DNA of 64,000 bases. It comes from Bacillota bacterium. Lineage in GTDB: Bacteria; Bacillota; Clostridia; Oscillospirales; Oscillospiraceae. The position numbers and the translations under genes were made by a program. The DNA lies in the NCBI GenBank assembly GCA_029224785.1, contig JAQXVF010000009.1, forward strand, positions 10,314 to 74,313, in the 5' to 3' direction. The notes under the pieces were generated by a model. The model worked only from the letters and a program-made list of their open reading frames with translations, made no database searches and had not been told where the DNA came from. Positions 6,210 through 34,618 of the stretch are shown in pieces (position 1 is the stretch's first letter; every line of letters begins with the position of its first letter).

Positions 6210-6914
6210 ATGGATGGAAAGGAGGCGGTGTTTTTGGAACAATCCCTCTATGTGATGATCTCCTCCACCGGCTCCGGTATGGGAAAGACGATCCAAAAAG
6301 TGACAGGGTTTCCCTATAATCATGTCTCACTGTCCCTGGACAACCGGCTTCAGGAATGGATCTCCTTTGCCCGCCTGAACATTTCCGCGCCCCTGGCAGG
6401 CGGACTGGTGGAGGAATCCTCCGGACGATTCGCTACCATCGGAAAAACCATACCGGTACGGATCTTCCGGATTCCACTTTCTCAGGAGGAGTATGCTTCC
6501 CTGCAGGACTTCCGGGACGGGATCCTTTCTGACAGGGAGAAGCTGACCTACAACAGCTTCGATGCAGCCGCCTCCGCCCTTGGCCTCCGGTTTCCTGTCA
6601 AGGGTGCCTACACCTGTCTGGCGTTTGCAAATGCCGTTCTTCACACTCGTTTTTTCTCCATTTCCGAGCTAAATGACGGGCTGTCCCGTTTTCTCATGTA
6701 TGAAGGGGTCTTTTTCCGGCTGGTTTCACCGGAAACGCCGCCGAAAGAAGCGTATCTGACGCCCTGGAGCAAGGGACGCGCTGTTGTCTCCACAGTCCGG
6801 CATTTTGTGTTTCTTCTCTGCCGGGTCATTGCACCCGGACGGTTTTCGGACCCAATCTGCACCCGGTGCGATGCGCTCCCCCCGCTGCTTTCGGAACGGG
6901 AGGCAACGGGATGA
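6210..6914 (+). CDS. hypothetical protein (possible permuted papain-like / LRAT-like fold: conserved-looking His then Cys)
   Basis: ORF 6093..6914. ATG 6210 sits too close to GGAGG; TTG 6234, 8 nt after AAAGGAGG, is an alternative start. Contains PYNHVSLSLD and AYTCLAFANAV. Its stop overlaps the next gene's ATG (ATGA). Confidence 0.55.
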   Translation: MDGKEAVFLEQSLYVMISSTGSGMGKTIQKVTGFPYNHVSLSLDNRLQEWISFARLNISAPLAGGLVEESSGRFATIGKTIPVRIFRIPLSQEEYASLQDFRDGILSDREKLTYNSFDAAASALGLRFPVKGAYTCLAFANAVLHTRFFSISELNDGLSRFLMYEGVFFRLVSPETPPKEAYLTPWSKGRAVVSTVRHFVFLLCRVIAPGRFSDPICTRCDALPPLLSEREATG

Positions 6915-7777
6915 AATACCGCACCGCCAACGAATACTACCGGGAGAAATTCGGGTGCAAAATCTACCGGCTGTCCATTGATGCCGGCTTCACCTGCCCC
7001 AACCGGGACGGCACGCTGGGTGTGGGAGGTTGCATTTTCTGTGATGGCAGCGGGGCTTTCTCCGGCCGGGGGGAGACTGTAACGGAGCAGCTTTCCCGCG
7101 CACGGGCATTGGTCTCCGCAAAAAACAAAGGTGGGAAATATATCGCCTACTTTCAGGCGTTTACCAACACCTACGCACCCTGTGAAAAGCTGCGGGAGCT
7201 GTACGAACAGGCCATCGCACCCGAGGATATCGTAGGGCTCGCCATCGGCACCCGACCGGACTGTCTGGGAGACGATGTGTTGGCGCTGCTGGCGGAGATT
7301 AACCGGATCAAACCGGTGGCTGTGGAGCTGGGACTTCAGACCTGCCACGAGAAAACGGCGGTGTATATCCGCCGGGGGTATCCCTTCTCCGTATATGAAG
7401 ACGCCGTCCGGCGGCTGAAGCAAAACGGCATTGAGGTCATCACCCACATTATCATCGGGCTTCCCGGAGAAACCCCTCAAATGGCTGCACAAACCACTCA
7501 GGCGGCCGTATCCGCCGGCACGGATGGGGTGAAGTTCCATATGCTCCATGTTCTGCGGGGAACAGATCTGGAGAAGGCCTACCTTCGGGGAGATTTCCGA
7601 TGTATGACCCTGGAGGAATACGGCAAGGCTCTTGAATGCTGCCTTCGGCAGCTTCCCCCGCATATTGTGGTTCACCGGATCACCGGAGACGGCGCGAAAA
7701 AAGATCTGGTCGCTCCCCTCTGGTCCGGAAATAAAAAGCGTGTCCTGAATTACCTGAATCGTCTGCTGCATTCATGA
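6911..7777 (+). CDS. TIGR01212-family radical SAM protein (YhcC/YtqA-like)
   Basis: Start MKYRTANEYY at 6911 after GGGAGG. Motifs FTCPNRDGTLGVGGCIFC (radical SAM Cys cluster) and GLQT...IIGLPGE. Confidence 0.85.
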   Translation: MKYRTANEYYREKFGCKIYRLSIDAGFTCPNRDGTLGVGGCIFCDGSGAFSGRGETVTEQLSRARALVSAKNKGGKYIAYFQAFTNTYAPCEKLRELYEQAIAPEDIVGLAIGTRPDCLGDDVLALLAEINRIKPVAVELGLQTCHEKTAVYIRRGYPFSVYEDAVRRLKQNGIEVITHIIIGLPGETPQMAAQTTQAAVSAGTDGVKFHMLHVLRGTDLEKAYLRGDFRCMTLEEYGKALECCLRQLPPHIVVHRITGDGAKKDLVAPLWSGNKKRVLNYLNRLLHS

Positions 7778-9928: not shown

Positions 9929-10001
9929 GTTTGCTTGCCCGGTTCCAGGCTCGCAATGTTTCTTCCCACTCTTTTCCGTATTGCAGAAAACAATCATTTG
10001 T

Positions 10002-10050
10002 AACTGCCGGATCAGTCACATTTTCGTGTCTGATCCGGCAGTTTTTCTTC
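10002..10050 (+). terminator. Rho-independent terminator after the GDPD gene
   Basis: Perfect 14-bp stem aactgccggatcag / ctgatccggcagtt, 14-nt loop, followed by tttcttcc. Confidence 0.7.
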
Positions 10051-10105
10051 CCTTTGAATAGAAATCGGAAAGAAATCAAAAGATACGGGAAGAAAGGGTG
10101 ATCAT

Positions 10106-11122
10106 ATGAACATCACACACAGCGGACGACAGAGTTTTCGTCTGCAGCAGCCGGTTGTCCTGACAACATGGGCCAGTGTTGCCGGAAAAAAAGAATCGGA
10201 AGGCCCTCTGGGAGCGTGTTTTGACCTGACATCCAGGGACCCCTACTTCGGACAAAAATCCTGGGAAAAGGCGGAAAGCCATTTACAGATGCTTGCCATC
10301 TCTGCCGCAGCGGAAAAAGCATGCCTTCAGCTTTCGGATTTCGACCTGATTCTGTCCGGCGATCTTCTGAACCAGTGTATCGGCTCCTCCTTCAGTCTGC
10401 GAAACACCGGAGTTCCCCATTTGGGATTGTACGGCGCCTGTTCCACCATGGCGGAAAGTCTGCTGATGGGTGCTATTGCCGTGGGATCCGGTGCTGTCCG
10501 TCGTGCGGTTGCAATGACTTCTTCCCATTTTGCATCCTCCGAACGGCAATATCGATTTCCTCTTGGCTACGGCGGACAGCGAACACCCACTGCACAGTGG
10601 ACCGTCACCGGATCCGGTTCGGTCATCCTGGAGCCCGGTGGAAAAGGCCCCAGAGTCGATGCCTGCACCGTGGGAACGGTGGTAGACCTGGGAATCAAGG
10701 ATGCCAACAACATGGGTGCGGCCATGGCTCCTGCGGCATACGACACCATCCGCGCCCACATGGATGATCTTGGCAGAACGGAGGCAGATTTCGACTTTAT
10801 CATCACAGGCGATCTGGGACAGTTGGGCCGGGAGCTTCTGTGCAAGCTGGCAGCCCGGGACGGATACCATTGGGAGGACAAGATCCGGGACTGCGGTTGC
10901 ATGGTATTCGACAACACGCAGCAGGATGTGCATTCCGGCGGCTCCGGCTGCGGATGCAGCGCCGTGGTGCTGTGCGGGTACTGGCTGGACAAACTAAAAC
11001 AAGGGAAACTGAAACGAATCCTGTTTTGCGGCACCGGGGCTCTACTGTCCCCCACTTCAACCCAGCAGGGGGAGAGTATCCCCGCCGTTTGTCATGCCGT
11101 TTCCCTGGAAGGAGGAAACTGA
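10106..11122 (+). CDS. spoVAD: stage V sporulation protein AD
   Basis: 338 aa. Thiolase-like SpoVAD pattern: GDLLNQC, LGLYGACST, ERQYRFPLGYGGQRTPTAQWTVTGSG, HSGGSGCGCSA. Confidence 0.9.
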   Translation: MNITHSGRQSFRLQQPVVLTTWASVAGKKESEGPLGACFDLTSRDPYFGQKSWEKAESHLQMLAISAAAEKACLQLSDFDLILSGDLLNQCIGSSFSLRNTGVPHLGLYGACSTMAESLLMGAIAVGSGAVRRAVAMTSSHFASSERQYRFPLGYGGQRTPTAQWTVTGSGSVILEPGGKGPRVDACTVGTVVDLGIKDANNMGAAMAPAAYDTIRAHMDDLGRTEADFDFIITGDLGQLGRELLCKLAARDGYHWEDKIRDCGCMVFDNTQQDVHSGGSGCGCSAVVLCGYWLDKLKQGKLKRILFCGTGALLSPTSTQQGESIPAVCHAVSLEGGN

Positions 11123-11123
11123 T

Positions 11124-11480
11124 ATGGAATACCTGAAAGCATTTGTCACCGGTGGGATTCTCTGTCTTATGGGACAAATCCTGATCGATAAAACAAAGCT
11201 GACCCCTGCCCGGATTTTGGTGAGTTATGTGGTCGTCGGCGTGCTTCTGGGCGGCACCGGAATCTATCAGAAAATTGTGGATTTCGGTGGTGCCGGTGCT
11301 ACCGTCCCCCTGACCGGCTTCGGATATAACCTTGCCAAGGGCGTGACCCGGGCTGTCAATGAGCAGGGTTTTCTGGGAATCTTCACCGGCGGGCTGAAAA
11401 GCTGTGCCGGTGGAATTACCGCAGCCATTCTGGCAGGCTTGGTCGCCAGCCTCCTGTTCCGTCCCAAGGATAAATCATAA
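11124..11480 (+). CDS. spoVAE: stage V sporulation protein AE
   Basis: Start MEYLKAFVTGG at 11124 after GGAAGGAGG. Small 4-TM protein. VPLTGFGYNLAKG motif is typical of SpoVAE/SpoVAC-family proteins. Confidence 0.85.
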   Translation: MEYLKAFVTGGILCLMGQILIDKTKLTPARILVSYVVVGVLLGGTGIYQKIVDFGGAGATVPLTGFGYNLAKGVTRAVNEQGFLGIFTGGLKSCAGGITAAILAGLVASLLFRPKDKS

Positions 11481-11551: not shown

Positions 11552-12421
11552 ATGGAAGTACCGGTGAGAAGATACTGTTGGTGCGGCAGCGGAAAATACT
11601 ATGAAAACTGCCACAGGGATTTTGACATCCGTCTGAAGGCGTTCCGCAGGCAGGGATTTCGGGTTCCGGGACATGACCTGATCAAAACACCGGAGCAAAT
11701 TGAGGGCATTCGCCGGAGCGCAAAACTCAACGTGGAAGTGCTGGACTATGTGGCATCCAACATCCGGGCGGGAATCTCCACAGAGGAAATCGACCGCTGG
11801 GTGTACGAATATACCGTCTCCCATGGTGGCATTCCTGCCCCGCTGCATTACGAAGGGTTTCCCAAAAGTGTATGCACCAGCCGAAACGATGTGGTCTGCC
11901 ACGGTATCCCATCCTCAAAAGAACTTTTGCTGGACGGAGATATCCTGAATGTGGATGTTTCTACTGTTTTGGGCGGGTACTTTTCGGATTCCTCCCGGAT
12001 GTTTTGCATCGGAAACGTCCCGCAAGCCCACCGAAACCTGGTTGACAATGCCCTGTTGTGTCTGAAAGCGGGTCTTTCCCAGATCAAGCCATGGGCACCC
12101 ATCGGAAATGTGGGTCAGGCCATTTCCGACTGTGCCCGGAAGTTCGGCTACTCCGTTGTTCGGGAGATCGGCGGACACGGCATCGGACTGGCATTTCACG
12201 AGGAACCTTTTGTAGATCACACCGCAAAGGCCGGTGCCGGCATGCTGATGGTTCCCGGCATGGTCTTTACCATAGAACCCATGATCAATTTGGGCACACG
12301 CCGGTTTACCATTGACCGGAGAAACGGCTGGACCATCCGCACCGCAGACGGGAAAGCCTCCGCCCAGTGGGAATACCAGGTTCTGGTCACGGAAACCGGA
12401 TACGAAGTTCTGGCATGGTAA
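11552..12421 (+). CDS. map: type I methionyl aminopeptidase with N-terminal SEC-C zinc motif
   Basis: N-terminus CWCGSGKYYENCH (SEC-C). Core motifs VCHGIP, DILNVDV, FCIG, GHGIG, FTIEP, QWEYQVLVT. Confidence 0.9.
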   Translation: MEVPVRRYCWCGSGKYYENCHRDFDIRLKAFRRQGFRVPGHDLIKTPEQIEGIRRSAKLNVEVLDYVASNIRAGISTEEIDRWVYEYTVSHGGIPAPLHYEGFPKSVCTSRNDVVCHGIPSSKELLLDGDILNVDVSTVLGGYFSDSSRMFCIGNVPQAHRNLVDNALLCLKAGLSQIKPWAPIGNVGQAISDCARKFGYSVVREIGGHGIGLAFHEEPFVDHTAKAGAGMLMVPGMVFTIEPMINLGTRRFTIDRRNGWTIRTADGKASAQWEYQVLVTETGYEVLAW

Positions 12422-12426
12422 AAAGA

Positions 12427-12455
12427 GAATAATCCTCCCTTTCGCGGACATACTA
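12427..12455 (+). promoter_or_regulatory. forespore sigmaG-type promoter candidate
   Basis: GAATA (12427-12431), 17 nt spacer, CATACTA (12449-12455). This matches the B. subtilis sigmaG consensus as I remember it (GHATR, 17-18 nt, CATNNTA). Confidence 0.45.
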
Positions 12456-12496
12456 TGCCTGCGGGATTCCGCAAACATTTTTTGGAGGATTGGAAA

Positions 12497-12631
12497 ATGA
12501 GCAATCAGAATAACAACCAGAACCGCACCCAGAACAACCAGAATCGTACCCAGAACAACAACCAGAACCGTACCCAGAACAACAACCAGAACCGTACCCA
12601 GAACAGCAACGAAAACTGCAAAGAGCGCTAA
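12497..12631 (+). CDS. 44-aa Asn/Gln-rich tandem-repeat protein (MSNQNNNQNRTQNNQNRTQNNNQNRTQNNNQNRTQNSNENCKER); possible small spore protein
   Basis: Below the ORF-track size cutoff. ATG 12497 lies 7 nt after GGAGGA (12484-12489). The stop is followed 6 nt later by a GC-rich hairpin. 19 Asn and 9 Gln in 44 residues. Confidence 0.55.
   Translation: MSNQNNNQNRTQNNQNRTQNNNQNRTQNNNQNRTQNSNENCKER
12518..12610 (+). repeat. in-frame tandem repeat, 4 units of 21/24 nt (CAGAAYCGYACCCAGAAC[AAC][AAC])
   Basis: Units at 12518-12538, 12539-12562, 12563-12586 and 12587-12610, encoding QNRTQN(N)(N). Confidence 0.85.
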
Positions 12632-12637
12632 GGAAAT

Positions 12638-12662
12638 CCCCCTCTGCCAATGGCAGAGGGGG
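12638..12662. terminator. GC-rich hairpin shared by the convergent small ORF and addA
   Basis: ccccctctgcc / ggcagaggggg, an 11-bp perfect inverted repeat around aat. Lies between stop 12631 (+) and stop 12667 (-). U-tracts are weak. Confidence 0.55.
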
Positions 12663-12666
12663 TCGT

Positions 12667-15600
12667 TCAGTTCACAGGCACACAATCGCCCGTGGAAAAG
12701 AAATACAGATACGTTTCCTTCACCGGCATCTGATAGATTCGCTCCATCGCACGGGCATAGGTTCTGACCTGTCCGGCATAACGCTCCGTCTTTTGATGCA
12801 GATCCTGTACCCGATCCGTCTTGAAATCCACGACTACCATACCGTCCGGCTCCATAAAAGCCAGATCCACCACACCCTGCATCAGAATCTCCTCCCCCGC
12901 AAGATCGGCGCCGAACCGCTCACCCGGCTCCAGAATGGAGAATTTGAACTCACGAAGCACCATACCGGCGTTTTGGAGTCTGGCTCCCAGGCTGCTTTGG
13001 AAAAAACCTGCAATGCACACCGGGTCCACCGAATCCCGTTCTTCTGTGCTGAGGATCTCTTCACAAACCAGCCTGTCAAGCTCCGACGACACCGACTGCA
13101 CATCCCTGCACACAGAAAAATCCAGATACTGCATGGCCCGATGGACGGAATTGCCCCGATCCATTCCGCTCTGGGCGGAGGTGCCGGGTTTTCGCCACCG
13201 GAAGGATACCGTCGGAGTTCCGCCGGAATTGCGTGCAGCCTCCTCATCCTTTTGCCGTCCCTTCTGCTGGGTGGCCGTCTGTTTGGACGGCTCCACCACC
13301 GCCGCCTGGTGGGGATAGCGGAAGGCAAGCCCCCTGCGGATCTGTTCCGGAATTTCCGGCGGCATGGTTCTTTCCTCCGAACCCTTCTCAAGGATCCTTG
13401 CCTCCTGAGGTGCCTCATCCACCAGCCGGATCTTCCATGCAGGTTCTCCCATGGTCGTCTCATGGTGCTTTGCCCCCGCAGCAAATAGTTCCCCAGCCTC
13501 CGTACGGCGCATAGCCGCCATCAGGATCCAGTCTCCCATGCAGGAAACGCAGGAAGCCATCAATTCCGGATCCTCCAGGGCCAGCCGGTTCCCCACAGCA
13601 GTGAGATGTTTGGGTAGGTCCTTCCGGGTGTAAGTCATTATCAGCCGGTCCCGTGCCCGCGTCATGGCAACGTACAGCACCCGCATCTCCTCGGAAAGGC
13701 TTTCCCTGCGTTCTTTGACGCTGATGGCCCTGCGGGCAGCAGAGGGATAAAATAACCGATTCTCCCGATCAGCAACGCTGAGTCCGATTCCCAGTTCCCG
13801 GTCACACAGGGCTCTGCCCCGGGAGGATTCCTGATTGATGGTCTTTGCCAGGCCGCAGAGGAACACCACAGGATATTCCAGTCCTTTGGATTTGTGAATA
13901 CTCTGGATGGTGACAAAGTCCCCGGCAGCATCGTCTCCGCTGACCTGGAGGCCCTTTTCCGCCATGGAATCCAGATAATGCAGGAACATATCCAGATCCC
14001 TTCTGCCGCCGTTTTCGTAGTCCACGGCAATCTGGAAAAAGCTCTGCAGATTCTTCTTTTTCTGGCTTCCGTCCTGACGGATGCCATAAATTCCCTCCAG
14101 TGAAAGGGACGCATATAGATAAGCCAGCAGTCCGCTGATGGTCTCCGACCTGGCTTTTTCCCGAAATACATCCAGAAGTCCGCATACCTCTGTGGCCTTG
14201 GGAAGCTCCGATAATCTCAGCGCCTCATAAAACGGGATACTCTTCTTCCCCTTTCGAACCTGCGCAAGCTCATCCGCCATAAAACCGAAGATCGGGCTGG
14301 AAAGCACCGCCGTCAGCGGGATATCCTGCCTTGGGTTGCTGATGACGCACAAAAGCGCTCGGAGCGTCTCGATCTCTTCCGTTTTCAGCAGATCACTTCC
14401 CGTATCACTTCTGCAGGGGATCCCCAGCTCTTCCAGCGCATTCTGAAAATACAGGCCGTTGGTACCGGGAGACCGGAGCAATATCACAATATCCGAGGCC
14501 GTAATGGGCCGAAGATCCTCCCCCTGCCGGACCATGTGGGTTCCGTCCAGCAGTTCCCGGATACGTCCGGCAGTAAACGCCGATTCCCGGGCATAGGTAT
14601 TGTCCCCTGCCTCTACGGCATAAAACTCGATCTCGGGATCCGGCAGGGATCCGTGAGGAACGCCCTCTACAAGCTGCTCCTCCGGACCGTAGTGCAGACC
14701 GCCTACGGATTCCGACATACAAAGGGAAAACACATCATTGACTGCCCGGATGACGCCGTTTCCGGATCGGTAATTCCGACTCAGGGAGATTTTCCGGCTC
14801 TCCCCGGGCTTCGCCTGCTCTGCAGGCACATAAGTATGGTATTTCTCCAGGAAAATACCCGGATCAGCCAGGCGGAAGCGATATATGGACTGCTTTACGT
14901 CACCGACCATGAAGCAGTTGTGCTTGTCCCGGCTCAGCGTACGGAATATTCCGTCCTGCACGCCGTTGGAATCCTGATACTCATCCACCATGATCTCCCG
15001 GTATCGGCTTCCGATCTCCCGGGCCGCTGCTGTGGGGCCGCTTCGTGCTTTGCCCATAAGCAGATCCAGTGTTTTATGCTCCAGATCACCGAAATCCAGC
15101 ACCCGCCGACCGGCTTTTGCCTTTGCGAAAGCCTTGGAGAATGCGCGGACCAGGCCGATCAGCCCCCGGGCAGCGGAAGCAAGCTGACTTGCATCCGACA
15201 AGATCTGCTCAGAGGATTCCGAGAAAAACTGGACATACCCTGCAAGATTCTTTTTGCAGGCATCCCGGACAGCTTTGATCTGTTCGCTGACCTCCGGAGC
15301 CGGATTTTTCGTCGGGAAGCGCAGGGTCCCGAAGGAAATCTTGCAGTTTCGAACATATTCCTCCCAGGTTTTGCTGTCCTGAAGCACCCGGATCTGCTGC
15401 AGTTCTTCCATCAGCACATCCGCAGCCTTCCGAAACTCCGGAACCCTATCCGCAGCTTCCACACACCGCTCCAACGCCGGGATCTGAAGCGCCAGATATT
15501 CCTGCATAGTATCCATCAGGAACCTGCCCCACGGCAGCTCCGCCAGATCCCCGGAAGAAGCCGGTAAGCTGTCCCGAAGGCATTGCTCCAGCCACGCCTC

Positions 15601-16170
15601 CGGATCCGGATGACACCGGGAGGCGTCATAGATCTTCAGCACGATCTCCGGAACGGTAGCATCATTTCTTCCGATGCCCTGGGTATCCACAAAAGCGCAG
15701 AAATCCGGATTCTCATCCGCCCGGGCATAGGACTCCTCCAACACCTTGGCCATCACATCCTCCCGGAGCTGACGGCACTCATTCTCGTCCGCAACCCGGA
15801 AATCCATAGGCACATCCGTCTGATATGGATACTGCCGGAGAAGCTCCGAGCAGAAGGAGTGCACTGTGGAGATGCTGGCCATGTACAGACGTTGTACTTG
15901 ACGGCGAAGGTGGAGATTTCGGGGCTGCTCCGCAATCAGGGTGCTGAGTCTTGCGCCGATTTTTCGACGAAGATCTCCCGCGGCAGCCTTGGTATAGGTG
16001 ATGATCAAAAAATCGTCCAAATTGGCTGGATCAGCCGGATCCGTCAGATACTTCATGATCCGTTCCACCAGCACGGTGGTTTTGCCGGATCCCGCTGCTG
16101 CGGAGACCAGCAGATTGCCGCCCCGGTTCTCCACGACCGACCGCTGCTGCTCAGAAAACTGAACGCCCAT
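12667..16170 (-). CDS. addA: helicase-exonuclease AddAB, subunit AddA
   Basis: 1167 aa. UvrD-type N-terminus NLLVSAAAGSGKTTVLVERI, then DEYQDSN, helicase motifs and a C-terminal RecB-type nuclease region (GVVDLAF...VVDFKTD). Confidence 0.9.
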   Translation of the reverse strand: MGVQFSEQQRSVVENRGGNLLVSAAAGSGKTTVLVERIMKYLTDPADPANLDDFLIITYTKAAAGDLRRKIGARLSTLIAEQPRNLHLRRQVQRLYMASISTVHSFCSELLRQYPYQTDVPMDFRVADENECRQLREDVMAKVLEESYARADENPDFCAFVDTQGIGRNDATVPEIVLKIYDASRCHPDPEAWLEQCLRDSLPASSGDLAELPWGRFLMDTMQEYLALQIPALERCVEAADRVPEFRKAADVLMEELQQIRVLQDSKTWEEYVRNCKISFGTLRFPTKNPAPEVSEQIKAVRDACKKNLAGYVQFFSESSEQILSDASQLASAARGLIGLVRAFSKAFAKAKAGRRVLDFGDLEHKTLDLLMGKARSGPTAAAREIGSRYREIMVDEYQDSNGVQDGIFRTLSRDKHNCFMVGDVKQSIYRFRLADPGIFLEKYHTYVPAEQAKPGESRKISLSRNYRSGNGVIRAVNDVFSLCMSESVGGLHYGPEEQLVEGVPHGSLPDPEIEFYAVEAGDNTYARESAFTAGRIRELLDGTHMVRQGEDLRPITASDIVILLRSPGTNGLYFQNALEELGIPCRSDTGSDLLKTEEIETLRALLCVISNPRQDIPLTAVLSSPIFGFMADELAQVRKGKKSIPFYEALRLSELPKATEVCGLLDVFREKARSETISGLLAYLYASLSLEGIYGIRQDGSQKKKNLQSFFQIAVDYENGGRRDLDMFLHYLDSMAEKGLQVSGDDAAGDFVTIQSIHKSKGLEYPVVFLCGLAKTINQESSRGRALCDRELGIGLSVADRENRLFYPSAARRAISVKERRESLSEEMRVLYVAMTRARDRLIMTYTRKDLPKHLTAVGNRLALEDPELMASCVSCMGDWILMAAMRRTEAGELFAAGAKHHETTMGEPAWKIRLVDEAPQEARILEKGSEERTMPPEIPEQIRRGLAFRYPHQAAVVEPSKQTATQQKGRQKDEEAARNSGGTPTVSFRWRKPGTSAQSGMDRGNSVHRAMQYLDFSVCRDVQSVSSELDRLVCEEILSTEERDSVDPVCIAGFFQSSLGARLQNAGMVLREFKFSILEPGERFGADLAGEEILMQGVVDLAFMEPDGMVVVDFKTDRVQDLHQKTERYAGQVRTYARAMERIYQMPVKETYLYFFSTGDCVPVN

Positions 16171-22820: not shown

Positions 22821-25715
22821 ATGTCGGAACTGAAACCGATTTCTCCCCTTCTGGACGGTTACGCCATCGGGGAATCCATAAGCAGTCATGACGGCGTTCG
22901 CTGTTACCCTGCCATGCCCGTCGGTTCGGATGCCAAGTATATTATCAAGGTGGTTACGGTACCCGCTTCGGAGGTGCAGTTCCACGCCTTTTTGCTCAGC
23001 GGCGTCTACCCTTCCCGGGAAAAGACGCTGGCCTACTTCAAGGACATGGCAAACGGCGTGGTTCACGAGGCGGAGGCCCTGCGGCATCTTTCCCGCTTCG
23101 GCGGATTCACCTCTTATGAAAGCTGGCAGACGGAGCCTTTGGAAAACGGCTGCGGATATCAGGTTTATCTGCTGGGTACCTATAAGGATTCACTTCAGAA
23201 ATACATCAGCCGGAATTCCCTGACCCAGTTGGAGGCCGTCAATCTGGGATTGGACCTGTGTGCTGCCCTGACCACCGCAAGAAATGCCGGATGTCTGTGT
23301 GTAGACGTGAAACCGGAAAACATTTTTATCGGTGATGACGGGAAATACCGCATCGGCGACCTGGGATTCATTCCCCTGTCCTGTCTGAGCTATTCTTCCC
23401 TTCCCGATCGGTACCACAGCCCGTACTCCGCTCCGGAGCTCAGTGATCCCATGGCCTCCGTCAGCGCCACCGCAGACGTGTATTCCATGGGTCTGATCCT
23501 GTATCAGGTGTATAACAACGGTGTTCTTCCGGAAATCGTTCCCGGAAAGCCCATCCCAGCCCCGGAATATGCGGATTATGAAATGGCAGAGATCATTCTC
23601 AAAGCGATTGATCCCAATCCAGCCATGCGCTGGGAAGATCCCAGACAGATGGGGCAATTCCTGGTATCCTATATGCAGCGCAACCCGGTGAACGATACCC
23701 CCATCATTCCACCTGCTGATCCGGATATGGATCTGGGCGACCTGTCCCTCGAGGATACCCAGATGCCGGAGCTTCAGATAGATCCGCCGGCGGAGAACCC
23801 CGACAGTGAAGGAAGCGATGGATCCGCCGATTCCGAGCCCCGGGAACCGGATGAGCTGGCATTCCTGCAGGATCTTGTGCAGGACGAATCTGCCCCCAGT
23901 GAGGAAATGGCGGATGAGATCTCCCACGAGGACGTTTCCGGTGAGACCGCGCAGATGCTTTCCCGTCTGGACGAGCTGGTAGCCCACGAAGCCCCTGCAC
24001 CCGTAGTTCCCCCGGAGCCGATTGAGGTTCCCATGCCGGAGCCGATTCCTCCAGAGCCGGATACACCGCCGGAGGAGGAAACGATGCCTTCGCAGGCCGA
24101 AGACGAGGAAGCGGAACAGCCGGAGACGGACGAGCCTGAACCCCAGCCGGAAGAATCCGCAGCAGAAGAACCGGAAGAAGAAGGCTACGCTCCGGAAAAG
24201 AAGAAGTCGAAACTCAAAGGGTTTCTTGTTGCAGCCGCTCTGCTGGCTCTGGTATTCGCCGGGATATTCTATGCATACCAGTTCTATTACCTGCAGAATG
24301 TGGATTCCCTGGTTGTGAACGGAGACCAGACCTCCATTACCGTCCAGATCAAAACGGAAATTCCGGAAAGCAAGCTGAAGATCCTTTGCACCGATGCCTA
24401 CGGCAACACCCACAGCGCTTCCGTTGAAAACGGCTCGGCTGTCTTTACCGATCTGACACCGGATACCCTGTACCAGATCCGCGTTACCATGGAGGGCTTC
24501 CATAAGGTCAGCGGCTCCTGCAGCGCAAGCTTCTCTACCAAGGCAGCCACCAATATCCTGAATCTGACCGCAGCCACCGGTGCAGAAAGCTCCTCCGCCA
24601 TCGTCAGCTTCTCCGTTGACGGTGTCGATTGTGAGGAATGGACTTTGACCTACCGCGCAGAGGGTGAGGAAGCCAAGAGCATAACCTTCAGCGGTCATCT
24701 GGCCACTCTGAACGACCTGACTGTGGGAAAAACCTACACCCTTTCCCTTTCCCCCAACGCAGAGACTCTGGTGACCGGCAACCGTGAGATTACATTCGTT
24801 CCCTCCCGTTTGATTTATGCAGAAAATGTATCCGCCGTTCTTTCCGGAGAGAAAGATATCACCGTCTCCTGGCAGGCCCCGGAAGGCACCTCCGTGGAGT
24901 ACTGGACGGTTCACTGCCTGGGAGATAACCAGTACGACCAGACGGTTAAGGTATTCGAGAACACCTGCACCTTTACCGATGTTGCCGAAAATCAGAACTA
25001 CGCCATTGAGATCACCGCTGCCGGTATGACCCAGGCGGTTCGCACCACCATCAGCACGTCTCCCAAGATCCTGACCGGATTCGTGGCAGAGGAAGTGTCC
25101 TCCCGTCAGATTCTGCTGGGGATCCGCACGGAGTCCCCGCTGACCGATGACAGCAAGCGCTGGCTGATCCGGTATTCCGTCAACGGAATCGAGCAGGATC
25201 CCATCTCCGTCAGCAGCAATTCCGCTGTTCTCTCTCCGGTCCTTCCGGGCGGACAGTATGAAATCACCCTGACGGAGACGGATGGTTCCCCCACTTCTGT
25301 GGCTCCCATCTCCTGCACCGTGCCGGAAGCCGAAAATTTCGACAGCTTCGGAACCAACCTGGATAACATCGTGATCTTTATGCTCCCGACCCCCGATACG
25401 GTGGGCTGGGGATTCAATGATGTGTCCGGTGGAGACTACACCACCTATTTCGATGCCGGAGAAAAGGCCTCCTACCTTTTCCTGAATCTGGGTGCGGACA
25501 CTGATGAAACCGGTGATGTCGGCGTGGTGTTTGCCGTCTATTCCGGAGACCGCTTTCTGAGCATGGAAACCAGATCGCTCCGGTGGGAGACCATGTGGAC
25601 AGATGGTTACTGCGCTATGGACATTGAAAAGATGCCTGCTCAGTCCGGCAACTATCACATGGACATCTTCTTTGACGGTCAGTATCTGAACACCATCTAT
25701 TTTACAATCAACTGA
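22821..25715 (+). CDS. Hanks-type Ser/Thr protein kinase-like membrane protein with acidic/Pro-rich linker and four FN3-like ectodomain repeats
   Basis: ORF 21753..25715. The upstream third is antisense to the neighbouring gene. Likely start is ATG 22821, 8 nt after GGAGG (alternative 22800). Kinase subdomains: YIIKVV (beta3 Lys), EAEALRHL, CVDVKPENIF, IGDLGF, SPYSAPE, DVYSMGLILY. No Gly-rich loop. TM FLVAAALLALVFAGIFYAY. FN3-like strand motifs LTPDTLYQIRV, LTVGKTYTLSL, NQNYAIEIT, PGGQYEITL. Confidence 0.75.
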   Translation: MSELKPISPLLDGYAIGESISSHDGVRCYPAMPVGSDAKYIIKVVTVPASEVQFHAFLLSGVYPSREKTLAYFKDMANGVVHEAEALRHLSRFGGFTSYESWQTEPLENGCGYQVYLLGTYKDSLQKYISRNSLTQLEAVNLGLDLCAALTTARNAGCLCVDVKPENIFIGDDGKYRIGDLGFIPLSCLSYSSLPDRYHSPYSAPELSDPMASVSATADVYSMGLILYQVYNNGVLPEIVPGKPIPAPEYADYEMAEIILKAIDPNPAMRWEDPRQMGQFLVSYMQRNPVNDTPIIPPADPDMDLGDLSLEDTQMPELQIDPPAENPDSEGSDGSADSEPREPDELAFLQDLVQDESAPSEEMADEISHEDVSGETAQMLSRLDELVAHEAPAPVVPPEPIEVPMPEPIPPEPDTPPEEETMPSQAEDEEAEQPETDEPEPQPEESAAEEPEEEGYAPEKKKSKLKGFLVAAALLALVFAGIFYAYQFYYLQNVDSLVVNGDQTSITVQIKTEIPESKLKILCTDAYGNTHSASVENGSAVFTDLTPDTLYQIRVTMEGFHKVSGSCSASFSTKAATNILNLTAATGAESSSAIVSFSVDGVDCEEWTLTYRAEGEEAKSITFSGHLATLNDLTVGKTYTLSLSPNAETLVTGNREITFVPSRLIYAENVSAVLSGEKDITVSWQAPEGTSVEYWTVHCLGDNQYDQTVKVFENTCTFTDVAENQNYAIEITAAGMTQAVRTTISTSPKILTGFVAEEVSSRQILLGIRTESPLTDDSKRWLIRYSVNGIEQDPISVSSNSAVLSPVLPGGQYEITLTETDGSPTSVAPISCTVPEAENFDSFGTNLDNIVIFMLPTPDTVGWGFNDVSGGDYTTYFDAGEKASYLFLNLGADTDETGDVGVVFAVYSGDRFLSMETRSLRWETMWTDGYCAMDIEKMPAQSGNYHMDIFFDGQYLNTIYFTIN

Positions 25716-25720
25716 CTTCT

Positions 25721-25756
25721 GGGCAGCCCTGCAGGGCTGCCCTTTCCATTTTTTTC
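25721..25756 (+). terminator. Rho-independent terminator
   Basis: gggcagccc tgca gggctgccc followed by tttccattttttt. Confidence 0.8.
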
Positions 25757-25821
25757 GGATAGACATATCCGTAAATTCTGCTATAATAGCGGCATACAGC
25801 ATTACAAAAGGAGGCGGCAGC

Positions 25822-26388
25822 ATGAAAGGAAACAGCCATCGTGCTCTTGGAGAGTATCTGGCAGGACGATTCCTGACAGAAGCCGCGCCCCGCTATACCC
25901 GGGCGTTTCTGCTGGGATGTGTGGAGCCTGACCATAATCCCTCTACCTATCTGAAAGGCTCCATCCGCTCCCAATGGCTCCACGGCCACAACTGGGGCAA
26001 TTCCGAGTGCCTGATCTGCCGGTTTTCCAACCGTCTGGAACGCCGCCGCACTCTACACCTCTGGGACTATTACACTCTGGGAAAACTGGTGCACTACACG
26101 GCGGACGCCTTTACATCCGTACATAACGCCCATTTTTCCGCCGGTCTCCGGCATCACCGTATGTACGAAAAAGCCCTGCAGAATCATTTCCTGCAGAACA
26201 TTGACCTGAAAGAACCAGGAGATCTCTCCGGAGAAGACTCCCTGTTTTCGCTGTTGTGCAGCTTCCACGCGGAATACAGCGAAGTCCCATCCAACATCTA
26301 TACGGACACCCACTATGTCCTCAGCGCCTGCTCCGCGGTGGTGGCCATGGTCCTCAGATCCTCTCAGCCGGTCTGCGGAAAATTATGA
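25822..26388 (+). CDS. zinc-dependent phospholipase C family protein
   Basis: 188 aa after AAAGGAGG. Pattern NSHRALGEYL...AFLLGCVEPDHNPS...LGKLVHYTADAFTSVHN matches the small clostridial Zn_dep_PLPC-like family as I recall it. Confidence 0.7.
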   Translation: MKGNSHRALGEYLAGRFLTEAAPRYTRAFLLGCVEPDHNPSTYLKGSIRSQWLHGHNWGNSECLICRFSNRLERRRTLHLWDYYTLGKLVHYTADAFTSVHNAHFSAGLRHHRMYEKALQNHFLQNIDLKEPGDLSGEDSLFSLLCSFHAEYSEVPSNIYTDTHYVLSACSAVVAMVLRSSQPVCGKL

Positions 26389-26407
26389 CAAAATCCGGAT
26401 TTTCCAC

Positions 26408-26436
26408 TTGCAATTATCCACCGGGTGTGGTAGAAT
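26408..26436 (+). promoter_or_regulatory. sigmaA-type promoter of the aro operon leader
   Basis: TTGCAA (26408-13), 17 nt spacer, TAGAAT (26431-36), with TG at 26428-29 (extended -10). Confidence 0.6.
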
Positions 26437-26469
26437 GTCCGCAATGAATGTATTCGGAGGCAAACACCA

Positions 26470-26538
26470 ATGATTCTCTCCACCAGTGCTGCACAGTTCT
26501 TTTTTGGCTACTATTACTTTTTTGCTGAGAAAAAGTAA
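26470..26538 (+). CDS. putative Phe/Tyr-rich leader peptide MILSTSAAQFFFGYYYFFAEKK
   Basis: GGAGG (26456-60) lies 9 nt before ATG 26470. 22 codons. Codons 10-18 (26497-26523) read FFFGYYYFF. Stop TAA 26536-38. Lies between the promoter and the attenuator terminator upstream of aroF. Confidence 0.6.
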   Translation: MILSTSAAQFFFGYYYFFAEKK

Positions 26539-26582
26539 TAGCGTTTTGTGCTGCACAAAAAAACCGTTCCACATGAAATCCC

Positions 26583-26618
26583 GCCGCACAGAATCTCTTC
26601 TGTGCGGCTTTTTATTTT
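26583..26618 (+). terminator. intrinsic terminator (attenuator) in the aro operon leader
   Basis: Perfect 11-bp stem gccgcacagaa (26583-93) / ttctgtgcggc (26598-608), loop tctc, then tttttatttt. The aroF RBS AGGAG is at 26622. Confidence 0.75.
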
Positions 26619-26634
26619 GACAGGAGTTGTTAAC

Positions 26635-27636
26635 ATGATTGCAATACTCAAGCGCGGAACCAGTGCCCAGCAGGCACAGCATCTCATCGATTGGCTGAAA
26701 AACATGAACCTGGATGTTCATGTCTCCACCGGCACGGAAATCACCGTTCTGGGTCTCATCGGCGATACCAGCCGTGTGGACATGGAACTGCTTTCCAGTC
26801 TGGAGATCGTGGACAGCGTTAAGCGCGTGTCCGAGCCCTACAAGCAGGCCAATCGGAAATTCCATCCAAACGACAGCGTCATTCAGGCAGGACAGGTCTC
26901 CATCGGAGGCGGCAATTTTGCCCTGATTGCCGGTCCCTGCTCTGTGGAATGCGAGGAGCAGATCATTGAAGTGGCGCAGTCCGTGAAGAAATCCGGTGCA
27001 AACATCCTTCGTGGCGGCGCATTCAAGCCCCGCACCTCCCCCTATGCCTTCCAGGGCCTGAAAGCTGAGGGTATCCGGCTTCTTCTGGAAGCAAAAAAAG
27101 CCACCGGACTTCCCATCATCACCGAGATTATGGATATCCGCACGCTGGATCTGTTCGAGGATGTGGATATCATCCAGGTAGGCGCAAGAAATATGCAGAA
27201 CTTCGATCTTCTGCAGGAGCTGGGCAGCACAAATAAGCCCATTCTGCTCAAGCGCGGCCTGGCCAATACCATTCAGGAGCTGCTGATGAGTGCGGAATAC
27301 ATTATGAGCCGCGGAAACGAGAACATCATTCTCTGTGAGCGCGGCATCCGCACCTATGAGACCGCTACCAGAAACACGCTGGACCTGTCTGCCGTTCCTG
27401 TTCTCCACGAGCTGACCCACCTGCCCGTAGTGGTGGATCCCAGCCATGCCACCGGACGTGTTTCCCTGGTGCCTCCCATGGCCGCAGCCGCAGCCGCCTG
27501 CGGAGCAGACGGCATCATGGTGGAGGTTCACAACAACCCGAGCTGTGCCCTGTGCGACGGTGCCCAGTCTCTGACGCCTGTTCAGTTTGACGAAGTGGCA
27601 GCGAAGGTTCGCCGGATTCGGGAGGCTATCTCATGA
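26635..27636 (+). CDS. aroF: 3-deoxy-7-phosphoheptulonate (DAHP) synthase, type I-beta with N-terminal ferredoxin-like regulatory domain
   Basis: Start MIAILKRG at 26635, 8 nt after AGGAG. Motifs [42 protein letters not shown]. Confidence 0.9.
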
Positions 27637-34147: not shown

Positions 34148-34582
34148 ATGAAAATCCTGGTGATCAACGGTCCGAACATCAACATGGTGGGAATCCGGGA
34201 ACCGGGGATCTACGGAAAGCAGTCCTTTTCCGATCTTCTGACCATGTTGCAGCAGACCGCGAAGGAGGATCAGATTACCATCGATCAGTTCCAGTCCAAC
34301 CATGAGGGTGCCATTGTGGACACCATCCAGGCCGCTCTGGGCGTATATGACGGTATCGTCATCAATCCGGCTGCCTACACCCATACATCCGTTGCCATTC
34401 TGGATGCGCTGAAAGCCGTATCCATCCCCGCAGTGGAGGTCCATATCTCCGATGTGGATGCACGGGAGAGCTTCCGGCAGATCTCCTACGCCGGAAAAGC
34501 CTGCTTTGCCACCATCAAGGGACACGGTCTGCAGGGCTATGTGGAAGCCGTTCGTCTTTTGGAAAAGAAGCTAAGTGAATAA
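34148..34582 (+). CDS. aroQ: type II 3-dehydroquinate dehydratase
   Basis: MKILVINGPNINMVGIREPGIYG...QSNHEGAIVD...INPAAYTHTSVAI...EVHISD. Confidence 0.9.
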   Translation: MKILVINGPNINMVGIREPGIYGKQSFSDLLTMLQQTAKEDQITIDQFQSNHEGAIVDTIQAALGVYDGIVINPAAYTHTSVAILDALKAVSIPAVEVHISDVDARESFRQISYAGKACFATIKGHGLQGYVEAVRLLEKKLSE

Positions 34583-34583
34583 C

Positions 34584-34618
34584 AAAAAACAGAGGTGGAA
34601 ATCCCACCTCTGTTTTTT
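34584..34618. terminator. bidirectional Rho-independent terminator
   Basis: aaaaaacagaggtgg / ccacctctgtttttt with loop aaatc. Shared by aroQ (+) and the FtsX permease gene (-), whose stop it overlaps. Confidence 0.85.

Follow-up and report, generated by a model that had tools for sequence, protein, structure and literature searches.

A putative forespore-promoted micro-gene for an Asn/Gln-repeat peptide in an uncultured pig-gut member of the Oscillospiraceae

We analyzed a 64 000-nt stretch of DNA (below, the window; contig JAQXVF010000009.1 of assembly GCA_029224785.1, positions 10 314–74 313, forward strand) from a Bacillota bacterium of the Oscillospiraceae, an uncultured spore-former of the pig gut. 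At window positions 12497–12631 it carries a short open reading frame (ORF) for a 44-residue peptide built of repeats rich in asparagine and glutamine. This ORF has a counterpart in a second species (locus L212), and in front of it lies a candidate promoter of the type used in the forespore. The reading that we favor, and to which we would give about an even chance, is that of a forespore-promoted gene for a lineage-specific small protein of the spore core, operationally similar to the minor small acid-soluble proteins of Bacillus spores (SASPs). The original prediction, made from the letters of the window, had pointed to the same ORF and promoter and had proposed a spore storage protein resembling the gamma-type SASP; what it observed was confirmed, while its interpretation is supported in part. 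The elements of the module are as follows.

12427–12431, forward strand: -35 box GAATA inside the conserved block AGAGAATAAT (12424–12433); from a consensus scan, identical in L212
12446–12455, forward strand: -10 region GGACATACTA, 17 nt past the -35 box; from consensus and matrix score
12460–12483, forward strand: small stem-loop (12460–12473) and T-run (12478–12483); from a scan for terminator-like elements and folding
12484–12489, forward strand: ribosome-binding site (RBS) GGAGGA; seen in the sequence, kept in L212 with a 6-nt spacer
12497–12631, forward strand: coding sequence of the 44-residue Asn/Gln-repeat peptide, stop codon included; from the sequence, orthologues and synonymous unit variation
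12506–12610, forward strand: tandem array of 21/24-nt units coding for (N)NQNRTQN, polymorphic in copy number; from Tandem Repeats Finder
12638–12662, no strand assigned: 11-bp GC-rich hairpin, terminator shared by the small gene and addA; from a terminator scan and folding

The 135-nt ORF runs from ATG 12497 to TAA 12629–12631, and GGAGGA stands 7 nt ahead of the ATG, both as originally described. Direct translation gives MSNQNNNQNRTQNNQNRTQNNNQNRTQNNNQNRTQNSNENCKER, 44 amino acids; a residue count returns the same 19 Asn and 9 Gln that had been reported, 28 of 44 residues (64%). The tandem units were recovered by Tandem Repeats Finder as a 24-nt unit present in 4.5 copies with 88% matches. 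Codons belong to the preferred C- and G-ending set (AAC 16/19, CAG 9/9, ACC 4/4, CGY 5/5), where repeated codons are not independent observations.

We saw the same arrangement in L212, which comes from another species; at the C-terminus its AddA protein is ∼60% identical to that of the window, and the AddA fragment of scaffold L208 was the query that led to this locus. In L212 a 50-residue Asn/Gln-repeat ORF, MNTQNNNSQNRNQNQNRTQNNNQNNNQNRTQNENQNRTQNENRNSTQERR, is convergent on addA, and the module is colinear with that of the window in its -35 block, 17-nt spacer, -10 box, stem-loop, T-run, GGAGGA, ATG, repeat ORF and terminator. The gene upstream is a different one (DUF1667 in L212, map in the window); since footprint, spacing and stem-loop are nevertheless kept, the module travels with its own control region. 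Between the two loci AGAGAATAAT is identical and the 17-nt spacing is retained, with only about one-third identity in the sequence of the spacer itself (a comparison with one orthologue). The -10 box reads TATGCTA in L212 and CATACTA in the window, and the stem-loop reads CTGCGGG-TTT-CCGCAA, the window having -ATT- in the middle. Both proteins have 64% Asn plus Gln, a net charge of +4, an isoelectric point (pI) of 11.4–11.9, a grand average of hydropathy of about -3 and Met1 as the sole hydrophobic residue. The right half of L208 represents a third lineage, with a 33-residue orthologue that ends in ..NQNKNNTQDRR before its stop codon; its C-terminus differs from that of L212 by three synonymous and three conservative changes (K/R, N/S and D/E). 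The terminator of L212 and L208 is perfect and bidirectional (A-run, 15-bp stem, T-run; -30.9 kcal/mol) and differs from the hairpin of the window.

Within the species of the window, at least eight independent assemblies show no variation in promoter and leader, save for loop positions 12467/12468 and a deletion in sequencing run X14; the block AGAGAATAAT is unchanged in every within-species assembly. A check for repeat-number polymorphism had been suggested with the original prediction, and we did find alleles of two, three, four and five units in public assemblies; peptide size over the alleles is about 29 to 52 amino acids. A part of this variation may be due to assembly collapse; the two-unit allele comes from a k141 assembly, and the four-unit array of the window is shorter than that k. 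Repeat units chosen by DNA similarity only, with at most two mismatches from AACCAGAACCGTACCCAGAAC, differ at third codon positions only and all the differences are synonymous: five substitution types at four positions, against a chance expectation of ∼0.01, in what is a small sample. The kept features and the pattern of substitutions make it very probable that the 12497 ORF is a real protein-coding micro-gene, which would behave as a self-contained, independently transcribed, monocistronic unit.

Public gene calls begin further upstream, at the in-frame ATG 12455, which was overlooked originally and which opens a 58-residue ORF in the window; the called products have 58, 51 or 43 amino acids and the N-terminus MPAG[FRC]RKHFLEDWK. 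This start has no RBS and overlaps both the -10 box and the stem-loop; in X14 a 1-nt deletion at ∼12477 shifts it out of the Asn/Gln frame, and in L212 the frame of the upstream ATG is closed by TAA shortly ahead of the real start. The 58-residue extension is thus an annotation artefact, and the sequence comparison places the start of translation at ATG 12497.

The promoter candidate GAATA-17-CATACTA, originally reported as a match to the sigmaG consensus, is present at 12427–12455, with 41 nt between the element and the ATG. It fits the Bacillus subtilis sigmaG consensus at 12 of 12 positions. On both strands of the 64-kb window it is the sole match to GHATR-17/18-CATNHTA; shuffled sequences had a mean of 0.52 matches to this form and of 0.02 to the strict form, so the match count alone is not significant, and position and conservation are what matters. 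The -10 region GGACATACTA fits not only the sigmaG form CATnHTA but also the sigmaF form GGnnAnAHTR, a second fit that had been overlooked.

Because -10 boxes of the CATA type are common to the sporulation sigma factors, and because the Asn-rich protein GerG is controlled by sigmaE, we tested the class with matrices. Two-block matrices for forespore, sigmaE and sigmaK promoters were built with the mapped Clostridioides difficile promoters of Saujet et al., Tables S6 and S7 (PMC3789822), as the training set. In leave-one-out tests the matrices assigned the right class to 34 of 41 forespore, 37 of 41 sigmaE and 19 of 23 sigmaK promoters (83–90%). The scores obtained with these matrices were the following.

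Small-gene promoter, window: forespore 16.2 bits, sigmaE 5.9, sigmaK 3.6
Small-gene promoter, L212: forespore 8.0 bits, sigmaE -3.5, sigmaK 0.4
spoIIR promoter, window (control): forespore 12.7 bits, sigmaE -1.8, sigmaK 1.4

With the forespore matrix the small-gene site ranks first among 127 936 window positions and spoIIR third; a score of 16.2 bits falls in the upper quartile of those obtained by true promoters of C. difficile. In the window spoIIR, the classic sigmaF-dependent gene, is preceded by the promoter GTATA-18-CATACTG (20150–20121, minus strand). In C. difficile the promoters of spoIIR (GAATA-17-CATAATT, with GGA before it), CD1354 and CD1789 have a layout near-identical to that of the small gene, GAATA, 17 nt and GGACATA(A/C)T(A); those promoters were mapped, whereas the class of the small-gene promoter is assigned from the matrix and from conservation. 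The promoter features expected of the forespore regulon are found here: a -35 box GnATA, a spacer of 17–18 nt, a -10 box CATnnTA or GGnnAnAHTR and an RBS at the proper distance. Consensus, matrix scoring and the L212 footprint together support the assignment of the promoter to the forespore (sigmaF/G) class. It is the combination that persuades, namely a position 41 nt before a conserved RBS and ATG, a footprint kept across species while the spacer has diverged, and spoIIR as a control within the same genome. At this site sigmaF and sigmaG are indistinguishable; sigmaE is less likely.

Several observations weigh against the forespore-gene reading. As to the promoter, the -10 box of L212 is imperfect (6/7 positions), and both the geometry and the -35 box are compatible with sigmaE promoters too. 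Furthermore, the site with the second-best forespore score in the window (15.2 bits, at 34576) is part of a terminator and clearly a false positive; the matrix score by itself is therefore no proof. One could consider a mother-cell protein made from a sigmaE- or sigmaK-type promoter, associated with coat, cortex or germination and Asn-rich like the repeat region of GerG. For such a protein speak the fit of CATACTAT to xATAnnnT, the occurrence of GAATA with 16–17 nt in the mapped C. difficile sigmaE promoters CD2445, CD1884, CD3494 and spoIVA (PMC3789822), and the precedent of GerG, which is sigmaE-controlled and has Asn-rich polymorphic repeats (PMC5241399). However, the forespore matrix is ahead by ∼10 bits in the window and by ∼11 bits in L212; of the bases required by sigmaE and sigmaK, L212 has lost A at position 4 and T at position 8, while TA at positions 6–7 is kept; also, the small peptide has no flanking domains of the GerG kind. 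We consider a mother-cell product quite unlikely.

Metatranscriptome contigs have ∼2–5x coverage, unstranded and of similar depth over map, the small ORF and addA. One contig from an RNA run, X2, spans 12382 (inside map) to 12558; beginning as it does upstream of where transcription is predicted to start, it fits map read-through or contaminating DNA. Its course from within map into the ORF would suit a real small protein that is not specific to sporulation, transcribed by read-through from map or from a vegetative promoter and preceded by a fortuitous promoter match; the stem-loop behind map is weak (5 bp), and the window does hold a matrix false positive of similar score. On the other hand, a scan of the interval from map to the ORF gave no sigma70-like promoter, and in L212 the -35/-10 footprint, its spacing and the stem-loop are kept behind a different gene. 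This possibility seems to us unlikely.

The remaining contrary points concern the gene itself and its distribution. The repeat can be read through in each of the three frames, and the openness of the small ORF alone therefore says little. In L213 and L214, the nearest other relatives, the small gene is absent and spoVAD-spoVAE abut addA. No Asn/Gln-rich small ORF was present in 80 genome loci fetched via Map (all ≤65% identical); a word-indexed protein search found alleles of the window's own species only, as did phmmer against 1.84 billion representatives, with no other homologue. A regular expression for cleavage sites of the germination protease GPR (E-[FIL]-[AG]-[SNQ]-E type) had no match in the six frames of the window, in line with what had been said originally of this motif. 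One may then ask whether there is a gene at all, or just a slippage-prone 24-nt repeat between convergent genes with an ORF, an RBS and a promoter that coincide. The unstable copy number, the open frames, the lack of a detectable protein family and the narrow, patchy distribution would all agree with a mere repeat. Nevertheless, the start, GGAGGA, the frame, the composition and the stop before the terminator are kept despite indels and a flank divergence of ∼30–40%, the variation among repeat units is synonymous only, and the C-terminal replacements are conservative; we find the absence of a gene rather improbable.

Between the -10 box and the RBS we observed a stem-loop, TGCGG-GATT-CCGCA (12460–12473), followed by a T-run; it had been overlooked in the original prediction. 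The TGCGG/CCGCA stem is the same in the species of the window and in L212, despite the different upstream genes, and never varies, whereas the loop is variable (GATT, GACG, GTTT). In a search of 1.4 Mb of sequence the motif was confined to this gene. In the C. difficile table transcription starts ∼7 nt past the -10 box; with the same spacing here, G12461 or G12463 would be the first nucleotide of the mRNA, which would have a 4-bp stem at its extreme 5′-end. The element could possibly be an insulator against upstream vegetative transcription (from map) or a stabilizing 5′-terminal stem-loop of the mRNA. A similar nesting is seen at the spoIIR promoter, where the -10 box lies in an arm of the ispE terminator. 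The U-run of the leader (12478–12483) may pair with GGAAAAUG over the RBS (window 12476–12499), and the start codon would then be masked by a weak A-U helix; L212 does not share this pairing. The candidate of a leader peptide or attenuator was rejected, there being no downstream gene on the same strand.

With a compact promoter-to-terminator module of ∼200 nt and an (ARN)n-like repeat, one could speculate that the product is a small regulatory RNA: its CA-rich (AAC/CAG)n sequence would be a sponge for a protein or for RNA, and the ORF would be incidental. Rfam had no family here, either locally at E ≤ 1 or across the whole window; beyond the tiny 5′ stem and the terminator no conserved structure was seen, substitutions follow codon positions, and RBS and ATG are perfect and conserved. 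A regulatory RNA is therefore a very improbable explanation, and we return to the protein product.

The 44-residue peptide has a computed mass of ∼5.2 kDa and a pI of 11.4, i.e. it is strongly basic. It contains no Gly, Ala or Phe; Arg recurs once per 7–8 residues, and the only two Glu residues are both within NENCKER. Its nitrogen content is 2.0 N atoms per residue. With no hydrophobic residue past Met1, this pI, 64% Asn plus Gln and regular Arg, it must be an intrinsically disordered, highly soluble polycation. Two other candidate functions were tried and rejected: a precursor of a ribosomally synthesized and post-translationally modified peptide or a bacteriocin (the neighborhood has no processing or export genes) and a type I toxin (a hydrophobic segment is missing from the peptide).

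The likeness to the gamma-type SASP or to a minor SASP that was proposed originally did not stand at the level of sequence: there is no profile match and no GPR site, the peptide is strongly basic, and Gly, Ala and Phe are missing. Searches of Pfam (E ≤ 10) and NCBIfam, including SASP_gamma and the minor Ssp families, left the protein unmatched, and no alpha/beta-type SASP motif was found in the window. SspE is absent from all clostridial genomes (PMC3533761), as the original prediction had also said of gamma-type SASPs in Clostridia; given this absence, an analogue would fill a known gap. SspE and the small peptide are both Gln/Asn-rich, internally repetitive and hydrophilic, and both genes are monocistronic, with a strong RBS and a forespore-type promoter (predicted in the case of the small gene). 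Nonetheless, the small peptide is half as long, has a pI of 11.4 and shows neither sequence or profile similarity to SspE nor a GPR site; SspE repeats contain Gly, Ala, Phe and Glu, those of the small peptide do not. The peptide is not a gamma-type SASP, and this label should be dropped in favor of a SASP-like, family-less forespore micro-protein.

The best operational analogy is with the minor SASPs of Bacillus (SspH–P, Tlp): 34–71 residues, hydrophilic, lineage-restricted, monocistronic, sigmaG-dependent and with a role that is unknown or dispensable. In silico the small gene has the same traits, a small hydrophilic product, a monocistronic arrangement, a sigmaG-type promoter, a strong RBS and a terminator, yet no Pfam or NCBIfam model of SspH/I/K/L/M/N/O/P or Tlp matches its product. 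We know of no minor SASP that is a near-pure Asn/Gln/Arg/Thr repeat.

Another relevant protein is GerG (CD0311) of C. difficile, sigmaE-controlled and species-specific, with Asn-rich repeats and repeat-number polymorphism (PMC5241399). Like the small peptide it is a species-restricted clostridial protein with Asn-rich tandem repeats that vary by strain, low-complexity, disordered and prion-like (PMC5241399). In contrast, GerG is a far larger protein with functional regions outside its repeats; the repeats themselves, GMPNNMSNNMNSNM, are rich in Met and Pro, and the protein is made in the mother cell under sigmaE. The small peptide is basic, has 44 residues and is made up entirely of repeats, and its promoter, of the forespore type, scores lower with the sigmaE matrix (5.9 against 16.2 bits). 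Protein searches gave no homologue of the small peptide, CD0311 included.

If the forespore reading is correct, RNA polymerase bearing sigmaG and/or sigmaF, the sigma factors of the forespore, would initiate at ∼12461–12463 from GAATA-17-CATACTA and produce a short leader with the conserved GC stem-loop and the strong GGAGGA; the hairpin shared with addA would terminate the transcript. The peptide would accumulate in the forespore or spore core and would be degraded at germination as a nitrogen-rich reserve of Asn, Gln and Arg; it may also bind polyanions in the dehydrated core, such as DNA, RNA or Ca-dipicolinate. A possible role as a storage protein is compatible with the composition.

The neighborhood of the small gene is as the original prediction had indicated, with sporulation genes nearby: spoVAD, spoVAE, map, addA, addB, spoIIR and ispE surround it, and the closeness of spoVAD, spoVAE and spoIIR was counted toward a sporulation context. 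The stop codon of map is at 12419–12421, and the candidate promoter begins directly after it; addA (12667–16170) is convergent with the small gene. The hairpin described originally is there too, 11 bp with 9 GC pairs at 12638–12662, 6 nt past the small-gene stop codon; its fold has -24 kcal/mol and a z-score of -3.8. Having a T-run on the minus strand only, it is primarily the terminator of addA. As spoVAD-spoVAE converge directly on addA in L213 and L214, map and the small gene look like an insertion in the lineage of the window. The nearest Map homologues from other organisms are at most 71% identical, so the lineage is poorly sampled; contigs L204–L207 (Map identity 67–70%) had neither the synteny nor such an ORF.

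A wider set of similar ORFs appeared when we compared pig-gut runs X1, X4, X13, X14 and X19 with window positions 12480–12640 at 80% likeness. Many contigs of other organisms share only a part of the repeat, yet have RBS, ATG and stop codons of their own. Their starts include ..GGAGGTAGAGAATTATG-GAT.. (MDNQNRTQNNNQNKNENRNENRS), AGAGGAGAGATAATATG (MNN..), MNNQNKN.., MQKNQNKN.. and MDNQNRTQ.., and the Asn/Gln ORFs end in ..KNCR, ..RNSR or ..R before the stop codon. More Asn/Gln micro-ORFs that have escaped annotation thus probably exist in gut bacteria. When metagenome contigs were scanned with a degenerate DNA pattern for NQNRTQN (AAYCARAAYCGNACNCARAAY), there were among the matches listed chance matches only and no family member.

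Three assemblies related to the locus require caution. In L082 (1–1184) identity rises abruptly near window position 12260, from 70% to 98%, at a point where map has a highly conserved motif; L210 (1–736) is 78% identical over map; in L208 (1–917) identity falls from 97% to ∼69% within the Asn/Gln repeat. All three scaffolds are probably assembly chimeras between species, the alternative being real recombination. L082 was accordingly rejected as proof of extraordinary conservation, in view of its switch at ∼12260. To judge from the breakpoint of L208, a homologous repeat ORF must stand beside addA in another species.

Some features elsewhere in the window were recorded as well. The 12-bp terminator hairpin of ispE (CCGTCCATACTG...CAGTATGGACGG and T-run) holds the -10 box of spoIIR in its left arm, so a transcript from the spoIIR promoter would be without this terminator; as the start of spoIIR, ATG 20091 is likelier than GTG 20100. 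In the region 9929–11480, spoVAD and spoVAE have no spoVAC directly upstream; behind a terminator (10003–10047) comes a sigmaG-like site, TGAATAG-13-ATCAAAAGATA, which is weak at 7.4 bits. A bidirectional terminator, AAAAAACAGAGGTGGAAATCCCACCTCTGTTTTTT (34576–34612), separates a 144-residue gene (34148–34582) from a convergent gene for a 1158-residue membrane protein. Long ORFs without a Pfam domain at E ≤ 1e-5 are found at 161–1681, 6641–7771, 23190–25823 and 26383–27531 (506, 376, 877 and 382 amino acids, respectively); at ∼21.7–25.8 kb long ORFs overlap on opposite strands.

We characterize the small gene as a plausible, credible new small sporulation protein whose known distribution is narrow. 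Its immediate impact would be modest on account of this narrow distribution and of an expression and function that are predictions. To our knowledge, Clostridia are considered to have no gamma-type and to lack most minor SASPs, and the other contents of their spore core are poorly known. A bolder and doubtful generalization would make this the first of an overlooked class in gut Clostridia: basic, ultra-polar Asn/Gln micro-proteins of ∼30–50 residues, made in the forespore and stored in the spore core as a nitrogen-dense reserve and/or a polyanion-binding protectant, a functional counterpart of the gamma-type SASP. Low-complexity micro-genes of the Asn/Gln kind escape standard annotation, gene callers and homology or profile searches. 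Uncultured gut spore-formers dominate host-to-host transmission; if the reading is true, TQNNNQNR would be a simple mass-spectrometry marker for spores of this lineage, and a forespore Asn/Gln/Arg micro-protein would constitute a new class of spore component.

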